From the NCBI GenBank assembly GCA_964450405.1, contig CAYVCQ010000010.1, forward strand, positions 69,610 through 133,609: DNA of 64,000 bases, read 5' to 3'. Positions within the stretch are counted from its first letter, which is position 1. Each line of letters starts with the position of its first letter. This DNA is from an uncultured Leptospirales bacterium. GTDB lineage: Bacteria; Spirochaetota; UBA4802; UBA5550. The notes beneath the pieces were generated by a model. That model was not told the origin of the DNA, ran no database searches, and saw only the letters and a program-made list of their open reading frames with translations. Made by a program: the position numbers and the translations under genes. Positions 14,674 through 62,142 of the stretch are shown here, piece by piece.

Positions 14674-15252
14674 TTAGTTTTTTCCTTTTACATTATACTC
14701 CCATAGTTCTACAAGCTTATCAAATTCTCTATCAGATGGTTTATTCTCATACGCCTCATTTCTTCTTTTTATAAGATAGTAGACCGTTGAATCTTCCAGA
14801 AGGAATTTTTCACCAAGCTCATTCAGTTTATTAATAATGTAAATGAGATTGTAGGTGTTAAAACTCCCGAGTATTTCAGTGGATGCAACTGTCGGTTCAT
14901 ATTTCAGTAGAAGTTCAGTGAAGTAAAGAGCACTCCTCCATGAATCATTTATTCCGGCAAGACCCGACTTAAAGTGCATACTCAGTTTTTCAAACAGCTC
15001 CATATTTTTATAATAAGAGTCATATATGAATTTGATATATTGAGGAAAATTATTTTGAACTTCCATAAGATCGATCGGTTCATTTATAGTTGTGAACAGC
15101 TCAAAAATTTCGCGGCTTTTCTCATTGTTCGGTTCAACATCGATCAATTCAATTTTTAAGTCTTTTATTATAGTACGGACAATACCTGCTTTTTTCAGGT
15201 AGATTTCAATTTCAACAGGCTCAACATAATATTTTTTTTTGCTAATACTCAT
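14674..15252 (-). CDS. Hypothetical protein (192 aa), last gene of the antiporter operon
   Basis: No recognisable motif. Soluble. A 3-nt gap separates it from the upstream 805-aa gene, which suggests co-transcription. Confidence 0.4.
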   Translation of the reverse strand: MSISKKKYYVEPVEIEIYLKKAGIVRTIIKDLKIELIDVEPNNEKSREIFELFTTINEPIDLMEVQNNFPQYIKFIYDSYYKNMELFEKLSMHFKSGLAGINDSWRSALYFTELLLKYEPTVASTEILGSFNTYNLIYIINKLNELGEKFLLEDSTVYYLIKRRNEAYENKPSDREFDKLVELWEYNVKGKN

Positions 15253-19868: not shown

Positions 19869-20144
19869 ATGAAATACAATTTCGATAAATCTAAAAACGA
19901 ATTATTGATAAAAGAACGCGGTATATCATTTTATCAGGTCATAGAAACAATTGCCGAAAAGGGAATTTTATTAAATATTGAACATCCGAATAAAGTAAAA
20001 TTTCCGAATCAGTACATGCTTGTTATTGAATATGATAATTATACTTATTGTATCCCGTATGTTAAAAATAAAGATACAATATTTTTAAAAACAATTTTTC
20101 CAAATCGCGATTTTATGTATTTGTTAAAGGAGACTAAAAAATGA
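19869..20144 (+). CDS. BrnT-like (DUF497) type II toxin
   Basis: 91 aa. The N-terminal FDKSKNELLIKERGISFYQV fits the BrnT consensus (W/F-D-x-x-K-N-x-x-N-x-x-K-H-G-I-S-F). It overlaps the downstream gene by 4 nt (ATGA). Confidence 0.55.
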   Translation: MKYNFDKSKNELLIKERGISFYQVIETIAEKGILLNIEHPNKVKFPNQYMLVIEYDNYTYCIPYVKNKDTIFLKTIFPNRDFMYLLKETKK

Positions 20145-20431
20145 AAACTACAAAATATCTTGATAAAGAAGAACAGGAATTAATCGAATCATTTTCAAAT
20201 GTTGACAAAAAGGATTTAAAGCATCCGACAAAAAAGGATCAGCAGGTCTTTAAAAAAGCCGCCAGACAATATATTGCGAAAGAAACGAAGATGAATATTC
20301 GAATCGATCCATATGAATTGAAAATTATTAAAAAATTCGCAGATGAAGCTGGTTTGAAATACCAGACATTCATCAAAAGCATAGTTCATAAATACATCAC
20401 AGGTCAGCTTATTGAAAAGAGAACAAAATAA
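20141..20431 (+). CDS. BrnA-like (COG3514, RHH/CopG-type) antitoxin
   Basis: 96 aa. The C-terminal MNIRIDPYELKIIKKFADEAGLKYQTFIKSIVHKYI matches the BrnA ribbon-helix-helix pattern. It is translationally coupled to the toxin. Confidence 0.55.
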   Translation: MKTTKYLDKEEQELIESFSNVDKKDLKHPTKKDQQVFKKAARQYIAKETKMNIRIDPYELKIIKKFADEAGLKYQTFIKSIVHKYITGQLIEKRTK

Positions 20432-25586: not shown

Positions 25587-27161
25587 ATGAAAGAAGATTC
25601 TTCAAAGATTAAGCATTCTGCAGATAAGCCTGCACATAAAAAAATCAGATTCGGGATAAGTCTTAAGTTTTCTCTTGCGATCATTGCCCTTGTATCTGTT
25701 ATTATATTAACCATTGCAGTATTTATTGTATACAGGGAGAGCGGTCTTTTTAAAGAACAGGTTTTTAATTTTACTAAAAGGGAGATTGTTCATCTTGGGA
25801 ATACCGCTCAGCAGACTATAGGCTATGAAGAACTAACTCTTTCAGATGCAGTAAATGAATTGAAGAAAATTGACTATTACAAATATGTTTTTGTTCTGGG
25901 GAGTAATAATGAAGTGCTATATTACTTTGACAGAAGAGGGCCGGAGGGTGATGTAAAGCATGAAGTCAGAAAACAATTCAACGATTCGATAGTAAGAAAT
26001 CTTGATAATAGAACTGATCATGACTCTATTGATATCCTTGAGAACAAAGATGCTGCATCAAAAGGGGCGATTTTCGATTTTTCTAAAGTCGTCTACAACA
26101 GAGCAGATAGTAAGAAAAAATCAGGTGTTGTAATTATAGGAATGTCGGATATAATAATCCGTAATGAAATTGCAAATATTAAGCGTCTTATAATGTTTAT
26201 TTTCCTCGGCTACATGGTTATCTCCACAATCGGAGCAGTTATCCTATCACTTATCATTATCAGACCGATTAAAAAAATATCATATGGTGCGTCGGTAATC
26301 GGGAAGGGGGATTTTTCTTATAGGATAGAAGTAAACAGTTCTGATGAATTGGGGGTGCTTGCCTCGGAATTCAATCAGATGACGGAGATGATTCAGGATT
26401 CGAAGGAAAAGGAGATTGAATCACGGATTATGAATGAACAGCTGGAGATTGCCCGGGATATTCAGGAAGGGCTTAATCCAATGGGTTATTACAATAAAAA
26501 AGGGATACAGATAAAGGGTAATACAAAAGCAGCTAAAGGGGTAGGAGGGGATTATTTCGATTACATAGATATTGATGAAAACAGAGTATGTGCACTCATT
26601 AGTGACGTATCTGGTAAAGGTGTACCGGCATCTCTGGTAATGGTTATGATTCGAACCGTTTTTACATCATATATTACAAGAAAGGATATTGACTGTGCAA
26701 GTGTTGTGAAGGCGATTAATGATTCTCTCAGTGCAGACTTCGCCATAGATAAATTTGCCACGCTGTTTTTTATGATTTATAACAGGGAAACAGAGGAACT
26801 GTCATTTTCAAATGCAGGTCATGGTCCGCTTTTCTGCTACAGAGCTGCTGAGAATGTCTGCACCAGAACATCACTTGACGGGGTTCCAATTGGTATTATG
26901 GATGAAGTGGATTATAAACAGGCTAAGGTTAAGCTGCATCCGGGAGATATGGTTGTTCTTTATACTGATGGTATTACGGAAATGAGGAATAGTTCCAAAG
27001 AGGAATACGGATTGGGGAGAGTCCATAAGTTGATGATGGAAAATCACCATTTAAGTGCCGAGGATTTTCTTGCGCTTCTTATTAGTGAAGTGGAAGTATT
27101 CCGTGGGGAAACTCCTCCTCATGATGATACTACGGCAATGGTATTTAAACGTGATAAATAA
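25587..27161 (+). CDS. Membrane sensor with HAMP and a PP2C-type Ser/Thr phosphatase domain (RsbU/SpoIIE family)
   Basis: Two TM helices flank a periplasmic domain. HAMP-like linker. C-terminal SpoIIE signature (GVGGDYFDYI ... LISDVSGKGVPASLVMV ... LYTDGITE ... HDDTTAMVFK). Confidence 0.8.
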   Translation: MKEDSSKIKHSADKPAHKKIRFGISLKFSLAIIALVSVIILTIAVFIVYRESGLFKEQVFNFTKREIVHLGNTAQQTIGYEELTLSDAVNELKKIDYYKYVFVLGSNNEVLYYFDRRGPEGDVKHEVRKQFNDSIVRNLDNRTDHDSIDILENKDAASKGAIFDFSKVVYNRADSKKKSGVVIIGMSDIIIRNEIANIKRLIMFIFLGYMVISTIGAVILSLIIIRPIKKISYGASVIGKGDFSYRIEVNSSDELGVLASEFNQMTEMIQDSKEKEIESRIMNEQLEIARDIQEGLNPMGYYNKKGIQIKGNTKAAKGVGGDYFDYIDIDENRVCALISDVSGKGVPASLVMVMIRTVFTSYITRKDIDCASVVKAINDSLSADFAIDKFATLFFMIYNRETEELSFSNAGHGPLFCYRAAENVCTRTSLDGVPIGIMDEVDYKQAKVKLHPGDMVVLYTDGITEMRNSSKEEYGLGRVHKLMMENHHLSAEDFLALLISEVEVFRGETPPHDDTTAMVFKRDK

Positions 27162-27190
27162 ATAATTGTTAATAAACCAGTGGTATTTTA

Positions 27191-27220
27191 TCTCCGCCGC
27201 GCCTTAGGCGCGGCGGAGAG
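27191..27220. terminator. Perfect GC-rich hairpin (TCTCCGCCGCGCC-TTAG-GGCGCGGCGGAGA) between convergent genes
   Basis: 13-bp perfect stem seen 30 nt after the sensor gene's stop. It is a member of the CGCGCC...GGCGCG hairpin family. Confidence 0.55.
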
Positions 27221-27250
27221 TAATTTCAGCACCAGTTTTTGAGTAGATAT

Positions 27251-27286
27251 AAAAAAACCGGTTTAATAACCGGTTTTTAATTTTTT
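27251..27286. terminator. Bidirectional intrinsic terminator (AAAAAACCGGTT-TAAT-AACCGGTTTTT with flanking A- and T-tracts)
   Basis: Stem-loop with an A-run on one side and a T-run on the other. It sits between convergent genes (+ sensor, - STAS). Confidence 0.6.
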
Positions 27287-27302
27287 AGTTTAAATAGTAT
27301 TC

Positions 27303-27626
27303 TTACAACAGTTCATCTTCTGAGTCATAAATTGTAAAAAATTTATCAAGAGTAGCCAGTTTTAAAATGTTCAAAACATCATCGTGTATGTTCATAAGAG
27401 CAAATTTGCCATTATGAGCTTTCATTTTTTTCATGCCTGCAACAAGCGCACCTATACCGGATGAATCCATATAGTTCACTTTTTTCATGTCAACAATAAC
27501 ACTATTATGCTGTCCATCGGTTATGCTGAAAAGGGCTTTTTTTAATTCACTGACATTATATAGATCGACTTCGCCGCTTACGTCGATTATTTTATGTTCA
27601 CTAAAGTCTCTAAATTCGATGTTCAC
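27303..27626 (-). CDS. STAS-domain anti-sigma-factor antagonist (RsbV/SpoIIAA family)
   Basis: 107 aa with the STAS consensus, including the phosphorylatable Ser in the YMDSSGIG motif. It is a paralog of the gene at 58422-58769. Confidence 0.85.
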   Translation of the reverse strand: MNIEFRDFSEHKIIDVSGEVDLYNVSELKKALFSITDGQHNSVIVDMKKVNYMDSSGIGALVAGMKKMKAHNGKFALMNIHDDVLNILKLATLDKFFTIYDSEDELL

Positions 27627-27814: not shown

Positions 27815-29182
27815 TTATTTAATGTCAATAAATAATTTATCGATAAATCCGGAAAGATCAAGGAAATTATTAACTTCTTTCATTTCTTTACAGTAGTGTC
27901 CATAAATTGAAGCAATGCTGTCATTCCAGTCCCAGAGATGTTTTTTATCGGGATTAAGCCAGAAAACATTTTTTGTTTTATCATGAATTTTCTGAAATGA
28001 ATTGAGACCCGGATCGTTGTCATTATTTCTTGCATCTCCCAGTATAAGAACGGAAGTTTTTTTTGTCAATGAATCACTGTGATTTTCGACAAACTGATCG
28101 AAACATCTTCCGTAATTGCTTCCCCATCCGTAGGTAAAATTAGCATCAGTAAACATCGAATTTATTGCTCTTTCCGGATCCATTTCTCTGAACAGATCGG
28201 TTATTTCCACCATATTACTTATAAACGCAAAGGTTCTAACCTTGGAAAAAAGACTCTGAAGGCTATATGTAAGGAGAAGCATAAAACGTGAATACTGGTT
28301 AACTGATCTTGAAACGTCCACCATTACAACCAGCTGCGGGCGGTCTATTTTCTTAGTTTTAAAAAAAAGTTTAAATGGGACTCCGCCATATTGTAAATTT
28401 GTACGGAAAGTACGCTTAATATCTATTCCGCCATGTTTAACCCTTTTTTTTCTCAGAGAGATTCTGTTTTTCAGTTTCTGTCCGAATCTTTTAATTATCT
28501 CTCTCATCTCCTTTACTTCCTGAGGAGACAACTGGTAGATAAACTTATTCAGAAGAAAATCCTCTCTGTTCTTAAGTGTCTTACCAATATTTCTTTTTGA
28601 AACTTTCAGCTTTACAAGACTTTTAATAAGTGCAAGAAGATCCTCATTGCTTCTCTGGTCAGGCTCTCCATCTTCACTCTCTGAGTAATATGATCCTGCA
28701 GCTCCACCTTTAGACCGGAAGATTCCCATTCCCTCTCCTCCGCCTGAAGCATCTGATTCGGGAAGGTCATCGAGAAACATCTGCATAATTTCATCTGCGG
28801 ATTTCTCTAACAATATTGCCGGATCGAGCGACTCGATAAATTTATCAAGCTGAGAGTCTATTTCATTTATCAGATTACCGGGAACTTTATCGGCAAACTT
28901 CTGGAGGTCATCGCTGTCCATTCCGTCGAGGAACCTCTCGCGTCTGCTGAAGTATTCTTCGAAGCATCTGTCAAATACAGGAATGTCGGTGTAATCTTTA
29001 ACAAGTGTAGTTTTGAGAGTCTGTCTGAATATGACTTTGTCTTGAAGATCTATCTCTGTTATGGCCTTAAACACAGCAATAACTTCATCTGCAGAAATTG
29101 TAACATTCGCATCTCTTAAAATTTCTATAAATTCAAAGAGTTTGTCAGATATATAACTATGATTAATCATTTCGTTTGTCAT
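27815..29182 (-). CDS. VWA-domain protein of the CoxE/MoxR-partner type
   Basis: 455 aa. C-terminal von Willebrand A fold with a MIDAS-like DVSRS motif (VVMVDVSRSV). The N-terminal helical region is typical of CoxE-like partners of MoxR ATPases. It lies downstream of the MoxR gene on the same strand. Confidence 0.65.
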   Translation of the reverse strand: MTNEMINHSYISDKLFEFIEILRDANVTISADEVIAVFKAITEIDLQDKVIFRQTLKTTLVKDYTDIPVFDRCFEEYFSRRERFLDGMDSDDLQKFADKVPGNLINEIDSQLDKFIESLDPAILLEKSADEIMQMFLDDLPESDASGGGEGMGIFRSKGGAAGSYYSESEDGEPDQRSNEDLLALIKSLVKLKVSKRNIGKTLKNREDFLLNKFIYQLSPQEVKEMREIIKRFGQKLKNRISLRKKRVKHGGIDIKRTFRTNLQYGGVPFKLFFKTKKIDRPQLVVMVDVSRSVNQYSRFMLLLTYSLQSLFSKVRTFAFISNMVEITDLFREMDPERAINSMFTDANFTYGWGSNYGRCFDQFVENHSDSLTKKTSVLILGDARNNDNDPGLNSFQKIHDKTKNVFWLNPDKKHLWDWNDSIASIYGHYCKEMKEVNNFLDLSGFIDKLFIDIK

Positions 29183-29421: not shown

Positions 29422-30330
29422 TCAGTTAAGGAACAGCTCTTTGGACTGGGATACTGCAAGCTGTATATCCTTCTCATACTTTAGAATAAAGTTCAGTGTC
29501 TCCATCGCTATGGCCGGATCGAGATCCTGGTACCCGAGTATAACAAGCGCTTTTGCCCAGTCGAGAGTTTCGCTTATGCTCGGTTCTTTTTTCAGCTGGA
29601 GTTTTCTAATTCTCTGAACAGTTTCAACAATCTGTCTTATCATTTTAGGTCCGCTTTCAGGTACTTTTAATGATACAATTTTTTCCTCAAGCTCGATTGT
29701 GGGGTAATCTATATAGAGATGAAGACATCTTCTCTTCAATGCATCGGACATTTCTCTCTGGCTGTTTGATGTGAGGAATACAAAGGGTTTTACATCAGTC
29801 TTAAAAGTTCCAAGTTCAGGAATTGTTACCTGGAAATCAGAGAGAACTTCAAGTAGAAACGCCTCGAATTCGGAATCAGATTTATCTATTTCATCGATAA
29901 GAAGTACAGATCTTCTGTTGTTGGTTATCGATTTTAAAATCGGCCGTGGAATAAGAAAGTTTTCCGAGAAGAATACATCCTCGGTTGATGTAAGTTTGGC
30001 AATGGCACCCTTAAGAGTCTGTTCCGAGCCCATGATCTCCGACAGTTTATCTTTTAATATCTGAGTGTAAAGGAGCTGTTTGGCATACTCCCACTCATAA
30101 AGGGCTTTTGATTCATCCAGTCCTTCATAACACTGCATTCTGATTAAATCGATGTTAAGGGCAGAGGCGATGCATTTGGCAAGTTCTGTTTTTCCAACAC
30201 CGGCCGGTCCTTCTACCAGTACCGGTCTCTCCAGCTTCATTGCGAGATATACGGTAGTGGCGATCTCTTTGGAGGCGATATATTGTACTTTTTCAAGTTC
30301 TTTAATTGTTTCATCTACACTTTTAAACAT
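29422..30330 (-). CDS. MoxR-family AAA+ ATPase (CoxD-like)
   Basis: Walker A (LVEGPAGVGKTELAK), Walker B (LLIDEIDKSD), an AAA_5-type architecture, about 300 aa. Confidence 0.8.
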   Translation of the reverse strand: MFKSVDETIKELEKVQYIASKEIATTVYLAMKLERPVLVEGPAGVGKTELAKCIASALNIDLIRMQCYEGLDESKALYEWEYAKQLLYTQILKDKLSEIMGSEQTLKGAIAKLTSTEDVFFSENFLIPRPILKSITNNRRSVLLIDEIDKSDSEFEAFLLEVLSDFQVTIPELGTFKTDVKPFVFLTSNSQREMSDALKRRCLHLYIDYPTIELEEKIVSLKVPESGPKMIRQIVETVQRIRKLQLKKEPSISETLDWAKALVILGYQDLDPAIAMETLNFILKYEKDIQLAVSQSKELFLN

Positions 30331-30599: not shown

Positions 30600-31025
30600 A
30601 TGAAATTTGTAAGTATAATTAAATGTTTTAATATGAAATTATTTTATATATTTTTTATCTCAGCTTTCATTTTCATATCTTGCGGCGGGAATAGGGTTGA
30701 AGATGCCGGGGGTGGGGTATCAACTCGTGTTACTACAACTTTCAAATATGCTGATATTCCTGGAGATGATGCTTCGGTGAACATCGGTTCAGAAACAATT
30801 TACATGATTTATGCTAAAGCCACTGATGGTAAAACTTTAATTGCAGCATCTAACGATTCATCCTTTCTAACTGAAAATAAAAATTTTAGAGATGAGACAG
30901 AAGTAACCCATGAACTGTGGTACATAGTTTACAGATGGGCAACCGGAGAAAAGAATATGAATCACTTTATAGATGCCGGAGAAATGGGGCAGGATAATCT
31001 GAATGATACAAACCACCATTTCTGA
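30600..31025 (+). CDS. Hypothetical small secreted/lipoprotein (141 aa)
   Basis: Signal peptide with a lipobox-like ISCGG. No other motif. Confidence 0.45.
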   Translation: MKFVSIIKCFNMKLFYIFFISAFIFISCGGNRVEDAGGGVSTRVTTTFKYADIPGDDASVNIGSETIYMIYAKATDGKTLIAASNDSSFLTENKNFRDETEVTHELWYIVYRWATGEKNMNHFIDAGEMGQDNLNDTNHHF

Positions 31026-33020: not shown

Positions 33021-33878
33021 ATGTTTGAATCCGCCTTGTATAAACCGCTTTTGGCTGTACTTTCGATAATACTGGTTTTCACTTTTTTAAAATGTGCTTC
33101 TGGTAGAAAAAATGTACGAACGCTGCAGTGTTCGGATAATTCAACACTTTCCCTCACAGTTGAAAAAGTATTTGTAGAACTCTCGTATCAGAGTGTCTAT
33201 GATTTGTCATATAAAAAAAATTCTGATAAAACTCCGCGAATGGTGACCGGTAATATCTCAGTTCTTCCAACTGCAAAAAGATATAGGGACATGATCAGTG
33301 TTAGAGATTTTTTACCGGGAAAACCGAAATCCGTATTTCAGCATCACTATTTATTTCCGTCAGAATTTACATCGGATGAATTTAACGAGATATGCGGCTG
33401 TTTTGAAAAAAATAAAAATTCATTTCCTGAACTGAAAAATAAGGTAGGAGCGCTAATCCATGGAGATTATAACTCTTTCCGTGAAGCCTTTAAACTTCCT
33501 GATGGATTCTATATTGTGACGGAGTATAATGGGAACCTCACCATAGTAAAAGATCCCTCCCGCGAGGCGATGACAATACCCGCTGAACTCAAAAACTTCG
33601 CTCATATCGGATATTTCGATGACAGCAGCAGACTCCATCTTCGAAAAGGGAGGATTGTCTCCGGTGAATTCAAAGGACTTTTCGAAAGGCCTGTTAAACA
33701 GGTGTTATATGTTACAGAAGACGGGAAGGAGGATTACACCGGAGAGGTTGATACAACTTTCTGCAATATCTTATATAAAGAGAATGTAACAGGTGTAAAT
33801 AGTGAATATCTTCTTTCTGCAGTAAATGATAAGGGTGTAAAAATCGGCTCAGTGTTTATGACGGGCGGTAAGGAATAG
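33021..33878 (+). CDS. Hypothetical secreted protein (285 aa)
   Basis: N-terminal signal/TM segment. No recognisable motifs. Confidence 0.4.
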   Translation: MFESALYKPLLAVLSIILVFTFLKCASGRKNVRTLQCSDNSTLSLTVEKVFVELSYQSVYDLSYKKNSDKTPRMVTGNISVLPTAKRYRDMISVRDFLPGKPKSVFQHHYLFPSEFTSDEFNEICGCFEKNKNSFPELKNKVGALIHGDYNSFREAFKLPDGFYIVTEYNGNLTIVKDPSREAMTIPAELKNFAHIGYFDDSSRLHLRKGRIVSGEFKGLFERPVKQVLYVTEDGKEDYTGEVDTTFCNILYKENVTGVNSEYLLSAVNDKGVKIGSVFMTGGKE

Positions 33879-33991: not shown

Positions 33992-36900
33992 ATGCAGGGA
34001 ATTCAAGACATTCTTAATATTTTTATGATTCCGCCCATCCTATTTTTAATCACAGGAGTTTCTGTCGGTGTTTTTTCCTTCATAAAGGGAAAGCGTCAGT
34101 TGGAGACTGTTTTATTCGCTCTTATATGTGTCTGGTATTCGCTTCTTATGCCTGTCTTTATATCTCATCACATCTTTAAGGGGAATATATCTCTCATAAT
34201 GAAAATAGAGAGATGTATTCATGTTCTCTACGTATACGGCCCTGCAATTTTAATACTTTTCTCGCATTCACTGGTTAATAAAAAAAACAGAATCATAGAG
34301 ATAGGTGCTTTTATTTTTGCTTTTATCATTTCTCTTTTTGTTTTTACTGATTATTACTTTTCTGGAATTTGGATATACAATTGGGGGTACATAGCCAAGG
34401 GGGGGAATGTATTTCAAATATTCGGCCTATTTGCCATGAGTGCCATTGTATATTCTTTTGTGTTATCTATAAAAAAATTAAAAACTGATATTGATATTCA
34501 AACCCGTCTTAAAATAAAATTTATTATGTTTGCCGTTTTGGCTATAGGTATTCTGACATTAGGGAATATGCCTGCTTTGAATGGAATTAATATTTATCCG
34601 CCCGGGAACTTTGCCTTTATACCGATGCTCTTCATGGCGTGGGGAATTTTCCGGCATGACGCAATAAAGATTAATCTTTATACAAAGCGGAGAATTGCCG
34701 GAACTATTGTGCGTATATTTATTACCCTGATGCTTTTAGCTGCAATACCCATCGGCTTCTGGGCCATTGGAAGTTATAGTTTTAGTCATATTATTGATAA
34801 AACTTTACATTATGGAATTCCTCCTTTCATATCTTTTCTGTGTTGTGTTTTTTTATCTTATCTCTCTCTGCGATTGGGGGATTACCGCAAAGAATCAATT
34901 ATCTTCAGTCTTCTGATGTTAGTTTATGCACTATTAAGTATCGATATTTATCTCAACTGTATTATTACGGATCCTGTCATCGGGCTTCGGGTGAGCAGGT
35001 TCAGTCATCCTTTTGTTGTTTTTCTTCCGGCACTGGGGATGCACCTGATACGCGTGGTCACAGGGCGTCGTTCTGTGAACAGATTACTTTGTTTGAATTA
35101 TATCATATCAATATTTCTTTTAGCTTTTTCGCAATCTAACTATTATCTGCAGGGGATGAATGTATATTCATGGGGATTATTTGCAAAGAAGGCAATTCTG
35201 TTTGATGTAATGAGCGTCGTTTCAGCTTCAACACTCATATACAATATTGTGATTCTTATCAGTGCTTATCGGCATAGCGGCAACCGTTTTTTCAGACACC
35301 GTTTTCTTTTTCTTCTTATCGGTTTTGCAAGTACTGCTATTTTGTCGCTTGGGAATATACCTGCGATGAACGGGTACGGATTTTATCCTGTAGGCAATTT
35401 CATTTTTATTCCGGTAACATTTTTCGCCATAGCGCTTTTCAGGCACAACATCCCTGAGCTGATCCGTTTTGGAGGATCTTTTTCATATTTCGGAGTAATG
35501 TCAGGCGGAGTTTTTGCTGCTGTTTATTTACTTTCTGTAAAACACTCTGATAAATATTTACCCTTATATACCGGACTTTCAATTTTCAGTATTTTGATTT
35601 TTGATTTTTTTCTCCGCCGGCTTCGTGATGGGATATCGGGCAGACATATTAAACATTTACAGATTGCTCTGGAGAATCTTAGTGATAAGCTTTCCAGAGT
35701 CCGGACTCTGGATGATATTGCCGGATGCATTTCACAGTCATTCTTTTATGATCTGGATTGCGGTGAATGCTCTGTTCTGATCCACCAGGAAAACACAGGG
35801 GAATATAAAGGGAACAAGTTCATGAACAGAAGGCATGAATTTATTTCCGGCAAGAATTTAGATGAACGTTTATCATTTATTACAATTCCTTCCGATCATC
35901 CGCTTCTCGGTTATGTTGAGACTAAGTATTCTCCCGTTAAACAGGAGAATATTGAGTTCTGGCTTCTCAATAACGAGAGGGCCGTGGAGATGAATGATCC
36001 ACTCCGGAGGGCCGAAATAATTCTCCCGGTTTTTTTCGAGAACCGTCTCTCTGCTATAATACTGCTTGGTGTGAAAAGTTCAGGTTCGATGTATTCCAGT
36101 TATGAAACAGCATTTCTCTATCAGCTTGGAATTATTCTTGGTCCGCATATTGAAAATGCAGGAATTCTTCAGAGACTTGAAAATACTCTGGAGGAACGGA
36201 CAGGAAAACTGCGGGATTCGGAAAAAAAATACAGGACACTGCTTCAGACCAACAACGTGGGATTTTTCGAAATTGATTTAAGCGGAAAAATAGTATCCTG
36301 CAACGATGTTGTTCTTTCCTTTACCGGGTATACTCAAGAGGAATTCATAGGTATGAGCTTCTTAAAAATAATGACTCCGGAAATTTCTAAAAAGATTTTT
36401 TCCGAATATCATCGTGTTTTTTTAAAAGAAGTCGGACTGGGATCAATTGAGCATGAAGTAATAAGAAAAGATGGTTCATTAGGATTTGTTGAAACAACAG
36501 TATCTGCGATAATAGATAAATCAGGTAATGTTACAGGGTTCAGTACAATTGCAGTTGATGTTTCCAACAGGAAATCAGTTGAAAATGCCTTGAGGGAAAG
36601 TGAAAAAAAATACCGTCACTTTATTGAAAACGCAAATGAGATAATATATAAGTCTGACTGGCGCGGTAACTTCATTTACTCAAATCCGGCCTGTCAGAAA
36701 ATGGTGGAATATAGCAATGATGAAATCAGTCATATGAATTATCTTGATTTTATTCCACCCGAAAACCGCGAAACTGAATATGAGTTTTACAAAAATCAGT
36801 TAAAAAATAAAATTGATGAAACACATCGTGAACTTTCTTTAATAACTAAATCCGGAAAGATTTTATGGGTTGAGCAGGATGTAAGATCTGTAAAAGATGA

Positions 36901-46782: not shown

Positions 46783-47238
46783 ATGAAAAGAAATTATATA
46801 TTTACTAATGTATATCATATTGATAAAGAAGCGGAAGAGGTCTGGCGGAAGGTTGTCGATGTAGAATCATGGCCGGGCATCTGGAAGTACTTTCGGTATG
46901 TGGCTATTCAGGGGAATGAAAAGAATCTTCGATATGGAAGTATTATTCATTGCAGGGTAAGAGCCGCAATGTTTTATAAACTGGAATTTGCCGTAACGGT
47001 AAAAGAGATTGTTCCCTATGATAAATTGGTGGTTACGTGCAGCGGCGATCTTGAAGGGGAGGGAACCTGGCTCCTGAATAGTGACGGAGGCTCAGTGGAA
47101 TCACATTTTGAATGGAATGTTACAACAGATAATGTATTTTTAAAATTTATTGAGATGCTCCCTTTAGGTAGAAAATTTCTGCAGTTCAACCATAGAATAG
47201 TTATGGAAGAGGGCTACAGATCATTTCTCCGGGAGTAA
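46783..47238 (+). CDS. SRPBCC-superfamily (polyketide cyclase/START-like) small protein
   Basis: 151 aa with an alternating beta-rich pattern and conserved Trp residues typical of the Bet v1-like fold. Weak call. Confidence 0.4.
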   Translation: MKRNYIFTNVYHIDKEAEEVWRKVVDVESWPGIWKYFRYVAIQGNEKNLRYGSIIHCRVRAAMFYKLEFAVTVKEIVPYDKLVVTCSGDLEGEGTWLLNSDGGSVESHFEWNVTTDNVFLKFIEMLPLGRKFLQFNHRIVMEEGYRSFLRE

Positions 47239-52809: not shown

Positions 52810-55800
52810 GTGATATTCTCTCCATCGCGAGGGAGAGGAATAGTTTATGAGTGCGTACGTTTCTTAACGTTTAAAGGCGGTGGACCTTTGCTTGATCAAC
52901 ACACATTACGTATAATTAATGCAATTAATGTCCCGGTTCTTGTAACGGATGAATCGGGTATTATACTGGCAGGCAATAAATCTGCAGTCAGTTTTTTTCA
53001 TCAGGATAATTTAACCGGAACAGGTATACTTGAGTTTATACCGTCGATAATTTTTGAGGGAAACAGCCGGATTCTTTCGCTCAAAGAAGGTGAGGATTGT
53101 TATTTTTTTGGTGTAGAAGCTAAGGTAAATGGCAAGATCAGGGAAACGGATCTGGATGTTGTTCTTTTTGAAAGCGGAGAACACCGTATATATATCTGCA
53201 CAATACAGGATATTACAATCTATTCAGAGCTGATGAATAGTATAAATAAATTCAGCACGATAATTGAGAACAGCCCCGCTTCTGTTTTAATAACTGATAC
53301 TGATGGAAATATTGAATTTGTAAATAGTAATTTTCAGCAGCTTACCGGATACAGTTATGATGAGCTGACAGGTTCAAATATCAGTATGCTCGGCTCTCAT
53401 TTTCAGAAGAAAGAGTTCAGAAAAAGTATAAGGGAGAGTCTTAAAGAGGGAGATAAATGGAAAGGGGAGCTTCTTAATATTACTAAGAATGGAACACCCT
53501 ATTGGGTGATAGCAACAATCGCGCCGATTTTCAATAAAAACAATGAGATAGCTAATTATATATCTATTCAGGAGGATATAACCTACCTGAAAAAAATTGA
53601 AGAGGAATTAAAACAGTCGGAAGAGAAGTTCAGAGTTGTATTTGAGACTCTTCCCGAGGGCATTGCGGTTACCGATCTTTCTGGTGTTATAATTCAGGTT
53701 AACCAGGCATATATGAATATTCACGGGCATGACGTCAGAGGAGAGCTTGTCGGTAAAAACATATACGACGTTGCCGATGAAAAGATGAGTATTCTTTTAC
53801 ATTCACTTTTTGAAAAGGCCGGGAAAAACGGTTACAGTGAAATTGTAAGTTACGAAATAATTAATAACGGCAAAGTCTATGTTGAGCTGCAGGCGGCATT
53901 AATGACCGGCGGAAAAGGTCCAATCGGTTATGTTATACTGGCGGCGGATCATACAGTGAGAAGAAAAGCTGAGATTGCTCTCCGCGAGAGTGAAGCAAAA
54001 AACCGCGCCCTTATCGAAGCTGTTCCGGATATAATGTTCAGAGTAAACAATCAGGGAATATACCTGGATAAAATGCTGGGCACTAAAATAAGCGAGGTAT
54101 TTCCTGAAAGTATCGCGGTTGATTCGGTGCGATATATCTCGGCAGCTATTACGTCACGGGAGATACAGATTTTTGAATATCCGGTTGTATCTGCCGGAAA
54201 GAATGAATTTTATGAATCGAGATTTATTGCAATTGAAGATGATGAAGTGCTGATAATCCTCCGCAATGTAACTGAAAGACATACTGCCATGATGCAGATT
54301 GAAGATGCGCGCCGTGAAGCCGAACTTGCGAACCGTTCCAAAAGTGAATTCCTCGCCAATATGAGTCATGAAATTCGAACACCTCTTCATAGTATAACTG
54401 GATTTATAGAACTTCTAATGCGCGGCAGACTTGATGAAGATCAGCGGGAATATCTTGGTATAATAAATAAAAGCGCTTCAAATCTACTCGGGATAATCAA
54501 CGACATTCTGGATTTTTCAAAAATCGAGAGCCACAAACTTGAATTAAATAAAATAGAATTCAATCCCTTTACCGAATTTGAGTCTGTGGTGAGACTCTTT
54601 TCCATAAAAGCACGCGAGAAGGGGATGAAATTTTTTGCTTTCATTGATCCGGGGATACCCGAGGGTATTATTTCAGATCCGCTCCGGATTAAACAGGTGC
54701 TCTCCAATCTTTTAAGTAATGCTATTAAGTTTACTCCAGAAGACGGTGTTGTAATAGTTGAAATTAATCTATCGAGAAATAAGGATGGATTCTGTCTGAT
54801 TAATTTTTCAGTAACTGATACCGGAATAGGAATTCCTGAACGAAAACAGAAGCAGATATTTGAAGCATTTGCACAGGCCGACAGTTCAATCACCCGGCGC
54901 TTCGGCGGGACCGGTCTTGGTCTAAGTATAAGCACCAGTCTGGTACGGCTGCTCGGGAGTGAAATTGTCCTTGAGAGTTCAATGGGGGTGGGGAGTAAAT
55001 TTTATTTTACTCTGGAAGCTGAAGTTACAATTGATTCTTCTCCTGCGGAATTAATCAGAAAATCATATATTAAGGCATCGGTTATAACCGGGGATGCCGG
55101 GGACCATTCGTTTAAATATCTCTATGCATATCTTACAGCATGCGGCTGCGCAATACAAGTCTTTGAGAGCATCCCGCCGGCAGCCGGACAAGAGAGCGAT
55201 GTTGTATTTATCATCAAACCATCCTTGCCGCTGTATAATGTGTCAGTTGAAGATATTAAAAATCTGAAATCTCCGGTAATTGCAGTAGCAGATGGTGATG
55301 AAACAGATGATTATACTCCTGATGTTAAGATGCTTTTTTTTGAAAAACTAAGTCATCCTTTATCACCTGAAATTATATTTAAAACCTTATCCGAAGTTGC
55401 AGATTTAAACCGACCTCAGAACATTATATATGGTGAAACTGAAGAGCATATAAATTTAAAATTTTCAGGAAAAATTCTGGTAGGTGAGGATAACAGTATT
55501 AATCAGAAACTTATGATGCTGCTTCTGAAAGATTATGGACTGGAGGTCGATCTTGCCGGCAACGGACTTGCAGTTTTTGAAAAATTCAGCAAAAACAGAT
55601 ATGATCTTATACTGATGGATATAAATATGCCTGTTGCAGACGGTATTGAAACGGCCCATATGATACGTGAATATGAAATTGAAAATGGATCTGGTGCTAC
55701 ACCGATTGTTGCACTCACGGCAAAGGCACTAAAGGGTGATCGTGAGATGATAGATCAAAGCGGAATGAATGATTATCTTTCAAAACCGATAGAAATGGAT

Positions 55801-56217
55801 AAACTGGAGGCAGTACTGCTCAAATACCTCCCTTGTATAAAACGGGAAAAACAATCCGATCATCTTATGAGAAATGATGCTGATTCAGCATCTGTCGTTT
55901 ATTATGATTTGAAGAAAACCGCAGCCGAGTTGAAAATTCCGGTAAATGTTCTTTTGAATATAGGGCGGGATTTTTTTGAGGACACAATGAAAGCTATTGA
56001 TGATATCCGGGTGGCAGTTGAATCAGATACATATAAAGAGATTACCGCTTTTTCTCACAAAATTAGGGGAGCATCGGCAAATTTAAGATTTGTGAAACTA
56101 ACGGAATTTTTCTCGGAGCTCGAGGAGAATTCTTTGAAATCTGAAAATAATTTTGATTATTCCGCAATGCTTGATATTATATTAAATGAAATAGATCTTC
56201 TTAAAAAATATTTCTAG
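52810..56217 (+). CDS. Hybrid sensor histidine kinase: multiple PAS/PAC, HisKA, HATPase_c, receiver and C-terminal HPt domains
   Basis: H-box EFLANMSHEIRTPL. G-boxes (DTGIGIP, GTGLGLSI). REC (ILVGEDNSINQKLMMLLL ... DLILMDINMPVADGIE). HPt (SHKIRGASANL). The start codon is uncertain: GTG at 52810 or a downstream TTG/ATG. Confidence 0.85.
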   Translation: MIFSPSRGRGIVYECVRFLTFKGGGPLLDQHTLRIINAINVPVLVTDESGIILAGNKSAVSFFHQDNLTGTGILEFIPSIIFEGNSRILSLKEGEDCYFFGVEAKVNGKIRETDLDVVLFESGEHRIYICTIQDITIYSELMNSINKFSTIIENSPASVLITDTDGNIEFVNSNFQQLTGYSYDELTGSNISMLGSHFQKKEFRKSIRESLKEGDKWKGELLNITKNGTPYWVIATIAPIFNKNNEIANYISIQEDITYLKKIEEELKQSEEKFRVVFETLPEGIAVTDLSGVIIQVNQAYMNIHGHDVRGELVGKNIYDVADEKMSILLHSLFEKAGKNGYSEIVSYEIINNGKVYVELQAALMTGGKGPIGYVILAADHTVRRKAEIALRESEAKNRALIEAVPDIMFRVNNQGIYLDKMLGTKISEVFPESIAVDSVRYISAAITSREIQIFEYPVVSAGKNEFYESRFIAIEDDEVLIILRNVTERHTAMMQIEDARREAELANRSKSEFLANMSHEIRTPLHSITGFIELLMRGRLDEDQREYLGIINKSASNLLGIINDILDFSKIESHKLELNKIEFNPFTEFESVVRLFSIKAREKGMKFFAFIDPGIPEGIISDPLRIKQVLSNLLSNAIKFTPEDGVVIVEINLSRNKDGFCLINFSVTDTGIGIPERKQKQIFEAFAQADSSITRRFGGTGLGLSISTSLVRLLGSEIVLESSMGVGSKFYFTLEAEVTIDSSPAELIRKSYIKASVITGDAGDHSFKYLYAYLTACGCAIQVFESIPPAAGQESDVVFIIKPSLPLYNVSVEDIKNLKSPVIAVADGDETDDYTPDVKMLFFEKLSHPLSPEIIFKTLSEVADLNRPQNIIYGETEEHINLKFSGKILVGEDNSINQKLMMLLLKDYGLEVDLAGNGLAVFEKFSKNRYDLILMDINMPVADGIETAHMIREYEIENGSGATPIVALTAKALKGDREMIDQSGMNDYLSKPIEMDKLEAVLLKYLPCIKREKQSDHLMRNDADSASVVYYDLKKTAAELKIPVNVLLNIGRDFFEDTMKAIDDIRVAVESDTYKEITAFSHKIRGASANLRFVKLTEFFSELEENSLKSENNFDYSAMLDIILNEIDLLKKYF

Positions 56218-56244: not shown

Positions 56245-56979
56245 ATGCATACAGTTCTTGCAATTGATGATGATAAGACAACATTGGGAATTCTTGAATC
56301 TCAGCTTAACGGATTGGGATATAGAGTCTTTACAGAGAGAGCTGCCGTAAAGGGTCTGGAAATCGCAAAGGGATTCAACCCTGATGTTATACTTCTTGAT
56401 CTGAATATGCCGGTTATGGATGGTTTCGCTGTGCTCGGTGCTTTAAGACGGGATAAGGAAACACGGGATATTCCGGTTATAATGTTAACATCAAACAAAG
56501 AGAAGGAGACAGTAGTTGAAGCAATGCGTCATGGAATTGTTGATTATATTGTCAAACCGCACAATCCGGATAAACTCAACCTTAAGATTCGTGCTGCAAT
56601 TAATTATGGCGGAATGAAAAAGCAGCAGAATACAGATGTATTTATAGAGATCAGCAGAAAGGGGGAGATGTCCGTAATTGTAATGAGAGGGAGTATAAAC
56701 GAAAAGGGATTCCAGAGGGATGTGAAAACTGTATTTAATAATTTTTTCATGAAGCAGATTCATGGGAAAATATGTATTTTTGATATAAGAAATGTTGGAG
56801 AAATGCAGAAACAGGATATTGAAGAGTTCGTGAACATCGTCAATATGTTTTCCGGTACCACAAAAAAGATAGTGGCCGGCAGACATTACGGTGCAATAGT
56901 AGCATCGACAAACCTTGAGGAGATAGCAGAACTATTTCTCTCATTCGGAGATCTTGAGCTTGAAATGAATACTGAATAA
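56245..56979 (+). CDS. Response regulator: CheY-like receiver plus a C-terminal ~120-aa STAS-like domain
   Basis: REC motifs (LAIDDD ... DVILLDLNMPVMDGF ... IMLTS ... K). The C-terminal region fits a STAS-like alpha/beta pattern (inference only). It lies 27 nt downstream of the hybrid kinase. Confidence 0.7.
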   Translation: MHTVLAIDDDKTTLGILESQLNGLGYRVFTERAAVKGLEIAKGFNPDVILLDLNMPVMDGFAVLGALRRDKETRDIPVIMLTSNKEKETVVEAMRHGIVDYIVKPHNPDKLNLKIRAAINYGGMKKQQNTDVFIEISRKGEMSVIVMRGSINEKGFQRDVKTVFNNFFMKQIHGKICIFDIRNVGEMQKQDIEEFVNIVNMFSGTTKKIVAGRHYGAIVASTNLEEIAELFLSFGDLELEMNTE

Positions 56980-58363: not shown

Positions 58364-58392
58364 TTGACAAGCTATTTAATATGAGATTATAG
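58364..58392 (+). promoter_or_regulatory. Sigma-70-type promoter TTGACA - 17 bp - TTATAG upstream of the second STAS gene
   Basis: Hexamers seen in the sequence. A strong RBS AAGGAGG lies at 58414-58420. Confidence 0.45.
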
Positions 58393-58421
58393 TGTTTACT
58401 ATAGATGTGCTGTAAGGAGGA

Positions 58422-58769
58422 ATGATCTCTATGGACATAAGTTCCAGAGCAAAAGGGGAGGTCGTCATACTTGATATTTCAGGTGAGATTGATTTGTACA
58501 ATGCGCCCGAGATAAAAGATATTATTAACAAGTTGATTGAACAGAAAAGATATAATGTTGTAATTAATCTTAAAGAAGTAACCTATATCGATTCTTCCGG
58601 CATAGGGGCGCTTATTTCGAGTTTATCAAATCTCAAAAAGTATCAGGGGGGATTGAAAATAATCAATGTTTTTGCCTCCGTACGAAAGGTTTTTGAGCTC
58701 ACAAAGTTGACATCATTTTTTGATATTTATGATAATGAAGATGATTCCGTTAAGGCTTTCCAGCAGTAA
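58422..58769 (+). CDS. STAS-domain anti-sigma-factor antagonist (paralog of 27303-27626)
   Basis: STAS consensus with YIDSSGIGAL. RBS spacing favours the internal ATG at 58431 (MDISSRAKGEVV...) as the true start. Confidence 0.85.
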   Translation: MISMDISSRAKGEVVILDISGEIDLYNAPEIKDIINKLIEQKRYNVVINLKEVTYIDSSGIGALISSLSNLKKYQGGLKIINVFASVRKVFELTKLTSFFDIYDNEDDSVKAFQQ

Positions 58770-58803: not shown

Positions 58804-60030
58804 ATGAAACTAAAATTTGCAACCGCATTGGTATTGTTTTTAACTTTTTTTCTTGCAGCATGTGAGGATAAAATTCCAATTAAAGAATTCTCAAAGGCAA
58901 AAGAAGCTATCGATTTAGCTCTATCTGTTAAGGCTGACCAGTATAGCCCGGCAGAACTAAAAGAGGCTAATGATCAGCTGATAAAGGCTCATGAGGTCTT
59001 AATAAAAGACGATAAGCTTGATGATTCAGTTAAAAATTCTGAACAGTCATATGTTAAAGCAATGGAAGCTTACAATAAATCTGCAGTTCTTTTCGCAGCT
59101 GATGCACTTAAGAAAGCGGATGATGCAATCACTGCCGCTGATGTTGTGTATGCTGAGAAACTCTCTCCTGAACTTTATACTCAGGCAAAAGAATTATACA
59201 CTCAGGCAAATGAGAAATTCGAAGCTAAAGATTACATGGCTTCAAATGCGCTTTCTGTAGAGTCGTACAAAAAAGCTGTAAAAGCGAAAGAGGAGTCTCT
59301 TGATAATAAGTTTCAGCTTCAGGTTAAAATCGACGAGGTACACGCTACTTTATCAAAAATTGAGCAGTATGATTATGAAGAGTATGCCGGTGAAAAATAT
59401 AGTATAGCAAAAACTAAAACTGCAGTTGCAGAGAAGGGCTTCAGCAGTGATGCACTGAAAGAAGGTTTTGAATCTATTGAGACAGCTAAAATTAACGCTG
59501 ATGAAGCCTATACATTGACAATGGACGGAGTTACTTCCAGAAAGTTGACTGAGGCAGAAGATGTTGTTAGTGAAGCAGAAAACTCCAAGGGTGCCGCATC
59601 TGCTCAGGAGGATCTTGCTGCTGCTAAAGAAGCGCTTAATAATGCTAAAAATCTTAAAAGCAACGGAAGTTATGAAGAATCTATAACGTATTCAAACGAA
59701 GCTATCAGACTTGGAAATAGTGTTATAGAAGAAGGAAAAAAATCTAATGTCGCTGTAAAAAATCAGAATACAGATGCTGATAAAGACAAAGACAAAGATA
59801 AAGTTGTATCAACAAAAACTAAAAGCGGATTTGTAGAAGAAGATGAGAACTACTATTACTACAAAGCGAAATCATGGGAAAAGTATAAAGAGTGTCTTTC
59901 ACGAATAGCAGAGAAATATTATAAAAATGCAAAAGCGTGGAAAGGTATCCAGAAAGCTAATAAAAATATTAAAAATCCGGATTTAATCCAGCCGGGACAG
60001 ATTATAAGAGTACCAAAAGTAAGAAAATAG
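58804..60030 (+). CDS. Lipoprotein with a helical Ala/Lys/Glu-rich body and a C-terminal LysM domain
   Basis: Lipobox (FLAAC). C-terminal LysM pattern (KECLSRIAEKYY ... WKGIQKAN ... IQPGQIIRVP). Confidence 0.6.
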   Translation: MKLKFATALVLFLTFFLAACEDKIPIKEFSKAKEAIDLALSVKADQYSPAELKEANDQLIKAHEVLIKDDKLDDSVKNSEQSYVKAMEAYNKSAVLFAADALKKADDAITAADVVYAEKLSPELYTQAKELYTQANEKFEAKDYMASNALSVESYKKAVKAKEESLDNKFQLQVKIDEVHATLSKIEQYDYEEYAGEKYSIAKTKTAVAEKGFSSDALKEGFESIETAKINADEAYTLTMDGVTSRKLTEAEDVVSEAENSKGAASAQEDLAAAKEALNNAKNLKSNGSYEESITYSNEAIRLGNSVIEEGKKSNVAVKNQNTDADKDKDKDKVVSTKTKSGFVEEDENYYYYKAKSWEKYKECLSRIAEKYYKNAKAWKGIQKANKNIKNPDLIQPGQIIRVPKVRK

Positions 60031-60068
60031 ATAAAAAGTAATACAGGTTGGTGCAGATCTGATCAATT

Positions 60069-61065: not shown

Positions 61066-62142
61066 ATGAGATATCTTTTTGCAGGAATTCTGGCGGGGGC
61101 ACTTGCCGGTATATTCTTTTTCCAGGGAGTTTCAGCTTCTGAAATTATTCCCGAATTTTATAATTCACTGGCAGCACTTGAAATAAAAGCAAATTCTGAT
61201 AATCGTAAACTCCCCGAATCTTTCGTACTGCCCATGGATGGTAAAGCATTTCTCATCGATACATCAGGTAATGCAGTTAAAAAGGTTGAATTTAAAGGTT
61301 CACTTGTGGAATTAAGCGGTAATGGAAATTTCTATATAGAGTATGGGCAGGTCGGTACAAAGATAGGTCTTTTCGGAATTGACGGTGAAAGATACTGGCA
61401 GAAGGATTCCATGGAGAAACCTTTTCTGTCGTATAACGGAAAGCTTATTTTTCTTCTGAACGGAGATCATAGCGGATTAAGAATTTTTGACACCAACGGC
61501 AACACCGTGGGAACCGGTCAAATTACCGGAAGACTATGTACATCTGTTGAGTTTTCAGAAAAGAATGACTTTGGTGCCTGCGGATTTATCGATGGATCGT
61601 ATCATTTTATTAATCAGGATGGAGTTGTCATCAATAGCGGAACATCTCCGGCGGGAACGGCTGTCAAAGGGATCAGAATCAGCAGTAATGGAAAGTACGG
61701 TTTTGTACATTACGGCAATACAGTGAAAGATGGTGTAAGAATTGTCGACATTGCAGGTAAAGACTTTGATGATTCAGAAATCGAAAATGTTCATCCTGTT
61801 AAAACAGCAATGAATATATCTGATGAAGGATATGGCGCAATTTTTGATAATGACAAAGTTCTGCTTTTTGACGATGACTGTGATCTGCAGTTTAAACTCA
61901 ATGTTCCTAAGAAAAGGGCAGGTTTTTCCACATTGGCGCTTGAAAATGGAATTTATGCACTCGGCTATACAAAAATTACCGGTGAATCGCAGCTGATTGT
62001 TTTTCGAAAAAGCGGGGAGATATTTTATACAAAAGAGTATCCCGGTGAGTCTTTCTTGAGCAGCAGTATCAAAGATGGACTTATATTTCTAAGAGGTTCG
62101 GATAATCTGTTTGCTTATAGAATCCAGCTTCAAGCTGAGTGA
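61066..62142 (+). CDS. Hypothetical secreted beta-rich protein (358 aa)
   Basis: Signal peptide, with Gly/Asp-rich repetitive beta-strand segments suggesting a propeller- or sandwich-like fold. No catalytic motif. Confidence 0.4.
   Translation: MRYLFAGILAGALAGIFFFQGVSASEIIPEFYNSLAALEIKANSDNRKLPESFVLPMDGKAFLIDTSGNAVKKVEFKGSLVELSGNGNFYIEYGQVGTKIGLFGIDGERYWQKDSMEKPFLSYNGKLIFLLNGDHSGLRIFDTNGNTVGTGQITGRLCTSVEFSEKNDFGACGFIDGSYHFINQDGVVINSGTSPAGTAVKGIRISSNGKYGFVHYGNTVKDGVRIVDIAGKDFDDSEIENVHPVKTAMNISDEGYGAIFDNDKVLLFDDDCDLQFKLNVPKKRAGFSTLALENGIYALGYTKITGESQLIVFRKSGEIFYTKEYPGESFLSSSIKDGLIFLRGSDNLFAYRIQLQAE

Follow-up and report, generated by a model that had tools for sequence, protein, structure and literature searches.

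Does a 64-kb stretch of DNA from an uncultured Leptospirales bacterium (contig CAYVCQ010000010.1, positions 69,610 to 133,609; hereafter the window) encode a partner-switching network that works without an RsbW-type serine kinase, or does it carry scattered parts of a conventional one? The window contains genes for two STAS proteins (STAS1 and STAS2) and two SpoIIE-family PP2C phosphatases (PP2C1 and PP2C2), and no RsbW/SpoIIAB-like gene. A first-pass annotation made from the letters alone had counted these genes in the same way, and all of its domain calls were reproduced with Pfam and NCBIfam. It had gone on to propose a non-canonical network lacking such a kinase, which is not supported by our analysis, considering that the STAS proteins have a canonical DSSG acceptor, that the PP2C motifs are intact, and that the window represents only ~1.4% of the genome. 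We consider it fairly likely that these are dispersed genes of a conventional serine-phosphorylation partner switch, with the genes for its kinase and switch partner at other sites of a ~4-5-Mb chromosome. That RsbW is absent from the 64 kb is most likely due to the scattered arrangement that is usual for genes of this type; it is not remarkable in itself and should not be read as the sign of a kinase-less system.

The window has a GC content of 37%, and its closest relatives are uncultured "Leptospirales"/"Spirochaetota" metagenome-assembled genomes (MAGs). Related loci from these relatives (numbered with the prefix L) were used for genome-level comparison. They include loci from contig OW818666.1 (4,946,450 bp, the genome of L011), contig CAXXHB010000003.1 (4,265,687 bp, the genome of L006 and L022), and the MAG HGW-Spirochaetae-5 (L005). 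The share of the genome given above is based on a size of 4.3-4.9 Mb, for which the two contigs of 4.27 Mb and 4.95 Mb stand as representatives. All window open reading frames (ORFs) of at least 100 aa were searched for known domains, with a second scan at E ≤ 5 for the ORFs that had matched no family.

Phosphatase and antagonist genes with intact motifs

Both STAS genes scored far above the cutoffs of the relevant models (STAS1: PF01740, E = 6.2e-23, 81.0 bits vs a cutoff of 22.6, and TIGR00377, 84.5 bits vs 53.45; STAS2: PF01740, E = 2.9e-22, 78.9 bits vs 22.6, and TIGR00377, 93.3 bits vs 53.45). Their phospho-acceptor motifs, VNYMDSSGIGAL (YMDSSGIGAL) in STAS1 and VTYIDSSGIGAL (YIDSSGIGAL) in STAS2, share the element DSSGIGAL, which is invariant in both STAS families in an alignment of 13 orthologues, and the first serine of the D-S-S-G loop corresponds to Ser58 of SpoIIAA and Ser56 of RsbV. 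All four metal-binding motifs are present in both phosphatases: PP2C1 has a HAMP domain (residues 220-271, E = 6.6e-13) and a SpoIIE/PP2C domain (PF07228, residues 330-522, E = 1.4e-49) with the motifs GGDYFD320, SDVSGKG339, YTDGI459, and DDTT513, and PP2C2 has a SpoIIE domain (PF07228, residues 1595-1783, E = 1.1e-45), directly preceded by REC, with GGDFYD1584, ADVSGHG, YTDGI1720, and DDIT1774. Because an invariant acceptor serine is found beside phosphatases with all four metal-binding motifs, we infer that a serine kinase for these STAS proteins exists. In PP2C1, hydropathy predicts transmembrane segments at about residues 22-48 and 198-220, and the N-terminal 220 aa, including an extracytoplasmic domain of ~150 aa (window 25650-26180), have no Pfam match. 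The N-terminus of PP2C2 (window 33992-35500) is a polytopic membrane sequence of ~520 aa that includes its two HisKA_7TM modules, and residues of about 520-750, ahead of the PAS domains, match no family.

STAS1 had been described in the first-pass annotation as convergent with a sensor phosphatase, and the two had been paired functionally. The arrangement was borne out: the gene order TPR→PP2C1→←STAS1←VWA←AAA (Table 1) recurs in all but one of the 16 related loci, the exception being cut by a contig end, a bidirectional hairpin lies between the two convergent genes, and both the convergence and the AAA/VWA linkage are retained from genomes of 37% GC to one of 58% GC (L018), which agrees with the proposed pairing. 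AAA, VWA, and STAS1 form a same-strand run in which the AAA gene comes first. Orthologues of PP2C1 in the 16 loci are 53-85% identical, with values of 81-85% in L003-L007 and L011, 70-73% in L008-L010, and 53% over the full length in a third group (L012-L015 and L018); L016 and L017 contain only the C-terminal part of PP2C1 (63-69% identity), with the gene order of the third group. Since STAS1 stays 84-97% identical across these relatives while the phosphatase falls to 53% and GC content shifts by 20 points, its conservation suggests a protein that may be constrained by several partners. PP2C1 and STAS1 thus form a very strongly conserved pair of sensor phosphatase and STAS protein, which offers a clean entry point to signalling in these uncultured spirochaetes. 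In the more distant relatives, which have a higher GC content (L012-L014 and L016-L018), VWA and STAS1 are separated by genes for two kinases, one a Cache-HAMP histidine kinase and the other of the LvrB-like architecture REC-HisKA-HATPase_c (L018:11998-15238); this kinase pair is absent from the window's own group of loci.

The second STAS gene lies at another conserved locus. STAS2 probably starts at the ATG at 58431, because its orthologues are 111-112 aa long. The gaps following STAS2 are only 34, 38, and 4 bp, suggesting that STAS2 and the genes for the lipoprotein, the sigma factor, and the 358-aa protein could form an operon; because of these short gaps and the promoter-like site upstream, a common transcript of STAS2 and the sigma gene is probable. 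The order of hybrid kinase with Hpt, REC/STAS regulator, TGT, STAS2, LipL71-like lipoprotein, sigma factor, and 358-aa protein is conserved in L022 and L031, with a DUF4160/DUF2442 pair inserted between the regulator and TGT in L031. The link between STAS2 and a sigma gene, already pointed out in the first pass, is therefore a conserved one, although the sigma gene is the second and not the third gene downstream of STAS2. The sigma factor reaches 295.8 bits with the RpoD model (cutoff 572), 282 with RpoS (cutoff 378.7), and 122.6 with SigBFG (TIGR02980, cutoff 234.35); being far under the SigB/F/G cutoff, it is not of the SigB/F type. The 358-aa protein does not have the appearance of an anti-sigma factor. 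Neither mark of a canonical partner-switching operon, i.e., a HATPase_c_2 gene beside a STAS gene and a sigma factor of the SigB/SigF/SigG group, is seen in the window. As a separate observation, a LysM lipoprotein gene directly upstream of a group-2-like sigma factor (window 58804-61061) recalls the nlpD-rpoS arrangement of proteobacteria.

Searches for an RsbW-type kinase

No match to HATPase_c_2 was obtained among the window ORFs of at least 100 aa, including the family-less ORFs at E ≤ 5. SpoIIAB and RsbW probe sequences, validated against PDB (E = 2e-68 and 2.2e-91), detected only weak similarity to histidine-kinase ATPase domains in the window and in loci L001-L025, and no RsbW-type gene was found within 10 kb on either side of the two loci in relatives. 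The family-less window ORFs (14674-15252, 30600-31025, 33021-33878, 47221-47865, 61066-62142, and others) were also checked for a hidden RsbW and nothing was found; the product of 30600-31025 looks lipoprotein-like by eye. A 130-aa protein near the sigma cluster of L022 is a membrane protein. Locally, the SpoIIAB probe gave its best hit (tblastn, E = 4e-5) with a PAS-PAS-DHp-HATPase_c protein (L022:17898-19493) located ~7 kb beyond the sigma cluster, which by synteny corresponds to ~3 kb past the right end of the window. It is a histidine-kinase homologue whose acceptor His is replaced by Ser (GVASELKSH vs GIAHEINNP), possibly a pseudo-histidine kinase.

Relatives do encode a candidate protein of the RsbW superfamily at a different place. 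A 167-aa protein in L026 (HATPase_c_2, 24.7 bits vs a cutoff of 27.4), followed by a SiaC-like protein, was used as bait, and homologues were identified in OW818666.1 (P0377), CAXXHB010000003.1 (P0396), and HGW-Spirochaetae-5 (P0384); PF13581 (HATPase_c_2) is present in many members of this family. In the former two genomes the gene for the 167-aa GHKL-like protein is the first of an operon, whose further products are a STAS-fold protein of 123 aa, a protein of ~463 aa that resembles methyltransferases, and a MASE8-SpoIIE protein. There are weak matches to SiaC, slr1658, slr1659, and SiaA models, all below cutoff, and the NCBIfam family that fits the GHKL-like protein best is the slr1658 superfamily (38 bits vs 100). 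A 96%-identical copy of the 167-aa protein occurs in SRR13723393, a run whose number is adjacent to those that contain the window strain at 100% identity (SRR13723394, -96, and -97). The idea that the system contains no kinase is undercut by this pairing of an RsbW-superfamily gene with a STAS-fold gene at another site in relatives in which both loci are present. An RsbW-type kinase adjacent to other STAS genes elsewhere in the genome was the very finding that the first-pass annotation had named as making the local absence trivial; in spirit this is what close relatives show, although the candidate kinase is atypical, and most plausibly the 167-aa protein serves its own STAS-fold neighbour. 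Further PP2C and STAS-fold genes are found elsewhere in the relatives, and the lineage is therefore simply rich in such genes: this uncultured Leptospirales-related lineage has a rich and dispersed partner-switching repertoire. Small GHKL partners in it are often missed by precomputed Pfam annotation, implying that a census relying only on HATPase_c_2 will arrive at too low a number.

Table 1. Positions of the genes and sites discussed (window coordinates unless a related locus is named)
Feature	Position	Strand	Remarks
TPR-repeat protein, 657 aa	23272..25245	+	Pfam TPR families; upstream neighbour of PP2C1; syntenic in related loci reaching that far
PP2C1, membrane sensor phosphatase, 524 aa	25587..27161	+	First transmembrane segment, extracytoplasmic domain, second transmembrane segment, HAMP, SpoIIE/PP2C
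Palindromic terminator-like hairpin	27253..27278	both	11-bp stem, T-runs on both strands, between PP2C1 and STAS1; consensus match only
STAS1, 107 aa, single-domain, anti-sigma-antagonist type	27303..27626	-	Pfam, NCBIfam; predicted phospho-acceptor Ser55 in D54-S55-S56-G57
VWA (CoxE/MadC-like) protein	27815..29182	-	VWA_CoxE, E = 5.6e-38; NCBIfam MadC-like below cutoff; upstream of STAS1; syntenic
MoxR-type AAA+ ATPase (CoxD/MadB-like)	29422..30330	-	Pfam AAA_5/AAA; NCBIfam MadB 337 bits vs cutoff of 475; syntenic
PP2C2, polytopic hybrid sensor, 1784 aa	33992..39346	+	Two HisKA_7TM, three PAS, HisKA, HATPase_c, REC, SpoIIE/PP2C (Pfam)
Hybrid histidine kinase	52810..56217	+	PAS, HisKA, HATPase_c, REC, Hpt (Pfam); adjoins the REC-STAS regulator
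Response regulator, 244 aa, REC and cryptic STAS-fold domain	56245..56979	+	STAS at residues of about 134-243; tail of 117 aa, 56626-56976
Sigma-70-like promoter match	58364..58393	+	TTGACA, 18 nt, TATAGT; 11/12; just upstream of STAS2; consensus match only
STAS2, 112 aa, single-domain STAS	58431..58769 (ORF opens at 58422)	+	Pfam, NCBIfam; D-S-S-G, predicted phospho-Ser55
LipL71-like lipoprotein	58804..60030	+	DUF4398 and C-terminal LysM (Pfam); NCBIfam LipL71 below cutoff
Sigma-70 family factor, 330 aa	60069..61061	+	Regions 1.2, 2, 3, and 4 (Pfam); best NCBIfam models RpoD and RpoS, all below cutoff
Conserved 358-aa protein	61066..62142	+	N-terminal hydrophobic signal-peptide-like segment (by eye); no family match; 4 bp after the sigma gene; kept in L022 and L031
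slr1658-like operon in relatives	L029:10001-13629; L030:10001-13627; L026:13042-16672; L032:62-1789		GHKL-like first gene

Apart from these features, the window has two small ORFs at 19869-20431 (91 and 96 aa, with a 4-bp overlap), whose weak similarity to BrnT/DUF4258 and to CopG/BrnA/NikA makes a type II toxin-antitoxin pair probable.

A response regulator with a cryptic STAS fold

The response regulator encoded upstream of STAS2 had been suspected in the first pass to carry a STAS-like tail, which proved right at the level of the fold. Its REC domain (PF00072, E = 2.6e-26) has the catalytic residue set, with D8, D9, D52, T82, and K104 invariant in 40 sequences. AlphaFold2 modelled the whole protein with a pLDDT of 90 and the tail alone with 94.6, giving the tail topology β-β-α-α-β-α-β-α-β-α. 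When the tail model was compared using Foldseek, RsbV, SpoIIAA, TM1442, and RsbS were retrieved (best E = 9.8e-5, TM 0.6-0.7), RsbR and YtvA were also among the matches, and STAS structures were the only matches. Because the tail had no Pfam match at E ≤ 5, nothing significant by phmmer against PDB, and a probability of only 1% against the local STAS profile by hhalign, its kinship with STAS domains is visible only from fold comparison. The tail has no phospho-serine, a non-conserved K/Q occupying the acceptor position, and its invariant signature motifs are AGRHYG and SFGDLE. In an exhaustive search of 1.84 billion representative proteins with the tail profile, 123 clusters were obtained, and no canonical STAS protein was among them. 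Most have a length of 240-260 aa and carry the domain at residues of about 130-245 (i.e., REC plus tail). The possibility that the tail is an LvrC-like RsbW/Bergerat domain, and thus an anti-sigma factor within the window, was considered and rejected, since the AlphaFold2 models match STAS folds only.

The genomic surroundings of this regulator vary among loci, although a PAS hybrid kinase is its usual neighbour. Such a kinase immediately adjoins it in the window, L022, L025, L027, L028, and L031, and the kinase at 52810-56217 is presumed to be its phosphodonor. In L026, the regulator has no adjacent kinase and has as neighbours a canonical STAS gene as well as GGDEF-EAL, PilZ, and PP2C genes, and a paralogue in L024 stands alone. 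A literature search for REC-STAS or C-terminal-STAS response regulators returned nothing relevant, and an earlier description may exist. We tentatively raise the possibility, which we hold to be less than even, that this protein is the first of a small family, so far without annotation, in which a cryptic STAS domain of antagonist type is fused to REC and is switched on and off by phosphorylation of the receiver Asp instead of a Ser. Because the block that it forms with STAS2 and the group-2-like sigma gene is conserved, the regulator could compete with STAS2 for the same partner, which would feed a phosphorelay into the STAS2/sigma switch with no need for a serine kinase on that branch. This reading is a partial and more specific version of the idea in the first-pass annotation, and the REC-fused family is the most original element of the locus. 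With this REC-fused STAS fold, which Pfam does not see, the known output domains of response regulators gain a further type, a counterpart to the recently described REC-RsbW regulators LvrC and TciR.

Proposed circuit, alternatives, and known systems

In the dispersed conventional switch that we favour, a signal at the extracytoplasmic domain of PP2C1 would be transmitted through HAMP to the PP2C domain, which may then remove the phosphate from Ser55 of STAS1; unphosphorylated STAS1 would bind a GHKL-type kinase/anti-sigma partner (or another partner), whose target would be released. PP2C2 could control its own C-terminal PP2C domain via REC, as in REC-PP2C phosphatases, and might act on STAS1 or STAS2. 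STAS2, sharing a probable transcript with the group-2-like sigma factor, would probably be part of the control circuit of that factor, and the hybrid kinase at 52810-56217 may phosphorylate the REC-STAS regulator, so that Asp phosphorylation would serve in place of Ser phosphorylation as the STAS switch. Several points weigh against a conventional switch. The neighbouring sigma factor is RpoD/RpoS-like and not SigB/SigF-like, and no anti-sigma factor is adjacent to it. No canonical RsbW is present in the ~0.5 Mb formed by the window and the fetched loci, and a kinase for STAS1 or STAS2 was not identified there. The 167-aa GHKL-like protein of the relatives is atypical, has a STAS-fold neighbour of its own, and may not act on STAS1 or STAS2.

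The first-pass annotation had suggested that the HATPase_c domains of hybrid histidine kinases phosphorylate the STAS serines in a network without an RsbW-type kinase. The lack of an RsbW-like gene in the window and in the 10 kb around each of the two loci in relatives, the two kinase genes directly upstream of STAS1 in L012-L014 and L016-L018, and the PAS kinase-like protein with Ser for its acceptor His near the L022 sigma cluster are all compatible with this idea. However, it depends on adjacency alone, the kinases beside STAS genes carry ordinary HisKA H-boxes and REC partners, the two kinase genes next to STAS1 do not occur in the window's own group, and close relatives have an RsbW-superfamily gene elsewhere. 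None of our results supports phosphorylation of STAS proteins by these domains, we know of no demonstration that the CA domain of a histidine kinase phosphorylates a STAS serine, and we regard such a network as highly improbable. The same kinase pair could point in another direction, namely to an LvrC/TciR-type anti-sigma factor, RsbW-like and fused to REC, as the missing partner, on which STAS1/PP2C1 and an LvrA/LvrB-like phosphorelay converge in a hybrid of two-component signalling and partner switching. In Leptospira, the REC-kinase LvrB feeds LvrC (LIC11110), in which REC is joined to a Bergerat domain resembling RsbW (PMC13269768), several species of the genus have REC-RsbW proteins similar to TciR (PMC12826045), and a sensor kinase and a kinase of LvrB architecture separate VWA from STAS1 in six or seven distant relatives. 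Given that no REC-RsbW protein was present in any fetched locus, that the only REC protein of the window with an unassigned tail has a STAS and not a Bergerat fold, and that the window's own group lacks the kinase pair, we consider this hybrid quite unlikely.

It is also possible that the STAS proteins, while still phosphorylated by a distant kinase, act on targets other than sigma factors, STAS1 perhaps on the MoxR-type AAA+/VWA proteins or on c-di-GMP enzymes. To our knowledge, neither an interaction between a STAS protein and a MoxR protein nor any functional connection of the MoxR-type AAA+/VWA pair to STAS1 has been documented, and a literature search on MadB/MadC, the NCBIfam names of this pair, retrieved only unrelated lantibiotic papers. 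Non-sigma outputs of STAS proteins are on record for All4160 (bioRxiv 10.64898/2026.04.08.717354) and for SypA and SiaC (PMC12826045, PMC9239204). The AAA-VWA-STAS1 run stays together on one strand over the whole GC range of the relatives, and the surroundings of the L026 regulator, with a STAS gene beside GGDEF-EAL, PilZ, and PP2C genes, would also fit such targets. On the other hand, VWA and STAS1 are separated by a 188-bp gap with a promoter-like site, two kinase genes intervene between them in the distant group, and the linkage of STAS2 with a sigma gene is tight. Direct action on non-sigma targets therefore appears unlikely to us, and the dispersed conventional switch remains the reading that we prefer.

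Compared with the RsbU-RsbV-RsbW-sigmaB and SpoIIE-SpoIIAA-SpoIIAB-sigmaF systems of Bacillus subtilis, the window shares single-domain STAS proteins with a D-S-S/T-G phospho-serine and SpoIIE-family PP2C domains with intact metal sites. In contrast to these switches, it contains no adjacent RsbW/SpoIIAB or SigB/F-type sigma factor, one of its phosphatases is a membrane sensor with HAMP and the other is fused to a hybrid kinase, and its genes are distributed over two loci 31 kb apart. Scattering of this kind is seen in Chlamydia, whose Rsb genes are unlinked on the chromosome. The window resembles the chlamydial system in having a membrane PP2C phosphatase with an extracytoplasmic sensor domain and two STAS paralogues, but no RsbW was identified here, the sensor domain of PP2C1 belongs to no recognisable family, and the REC-STAS and hybrid-kinase-PP2C components have no chlamydial counterpart. 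Chlamydia trachomatis possesses the membrane sensor RsbU, RsbV1, RsbV2, and one RsbW, and control of an RpoD-type sigma factor has been proposed for it (PMC8256260, PMC11619594).

PP2C2 has REC directly before PP2C, as do the phosphatases of the RsfS/RsfR-RsfB system of Mycobacterium smegmatis, where the REC-PP2C protein RsfR acts on RsfB (PMC10950880), and of the RsbK/RsbY system of Bacillus cereus; therefore, Asp phosphorylation should set its phosphatase activity toward a STAS protein. Unlike those systems, PP2C2 fuses kinase, REC, and PP2C in a single polytopic polypeptide with two HisKA_7TM modules. Like the stressosome protein RsbR and YtvA, the regulator at 56245-56979 combines an N-terminal input domain with a C-terminal STAS fold, but its input domain is a REC fed by a hybrid kinase, its STAS domain has no acceptor Ser/Thr and escapes both Pfam and profile comparison, and genes resembling RsbT or RsbS are absent from its vicinity. 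The LvrA-LvrB-LvrC system of Leptospira, a member of the same bacterial order, and TciK-TciR of Vogesella likewise lead a two-component relay into a REC-fused domain of partner-switch type (PMC13269768, PMC12826045), whereas the REC-fused domain of the window is an antagonist-type STAS and not the Bergerat fold of an anti-sigma factor/kinase. The operon found in the relatives, with small GHKL-like, STAS-fold, and PP2C proteins, has the same organisation as SiaA-SiaB-SiaC of Pseudomonas and slr1658/slr1659 of cyanobacteria, from which it differs in scoring below the model cutoffs and in an inserted methyltransferase-like gene; it also lies outside the window. A scattered layout is likewise reported for HenR/All4160 of Anabaena, where the kinases acting on All4160 were found by two-hybrid screening (bioRxiv 10.64898/2026.04.08.717354). 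Taken together with these systems, the window presents dispersed partner-switching components of a known kind in a signalling-rich spirochaete.

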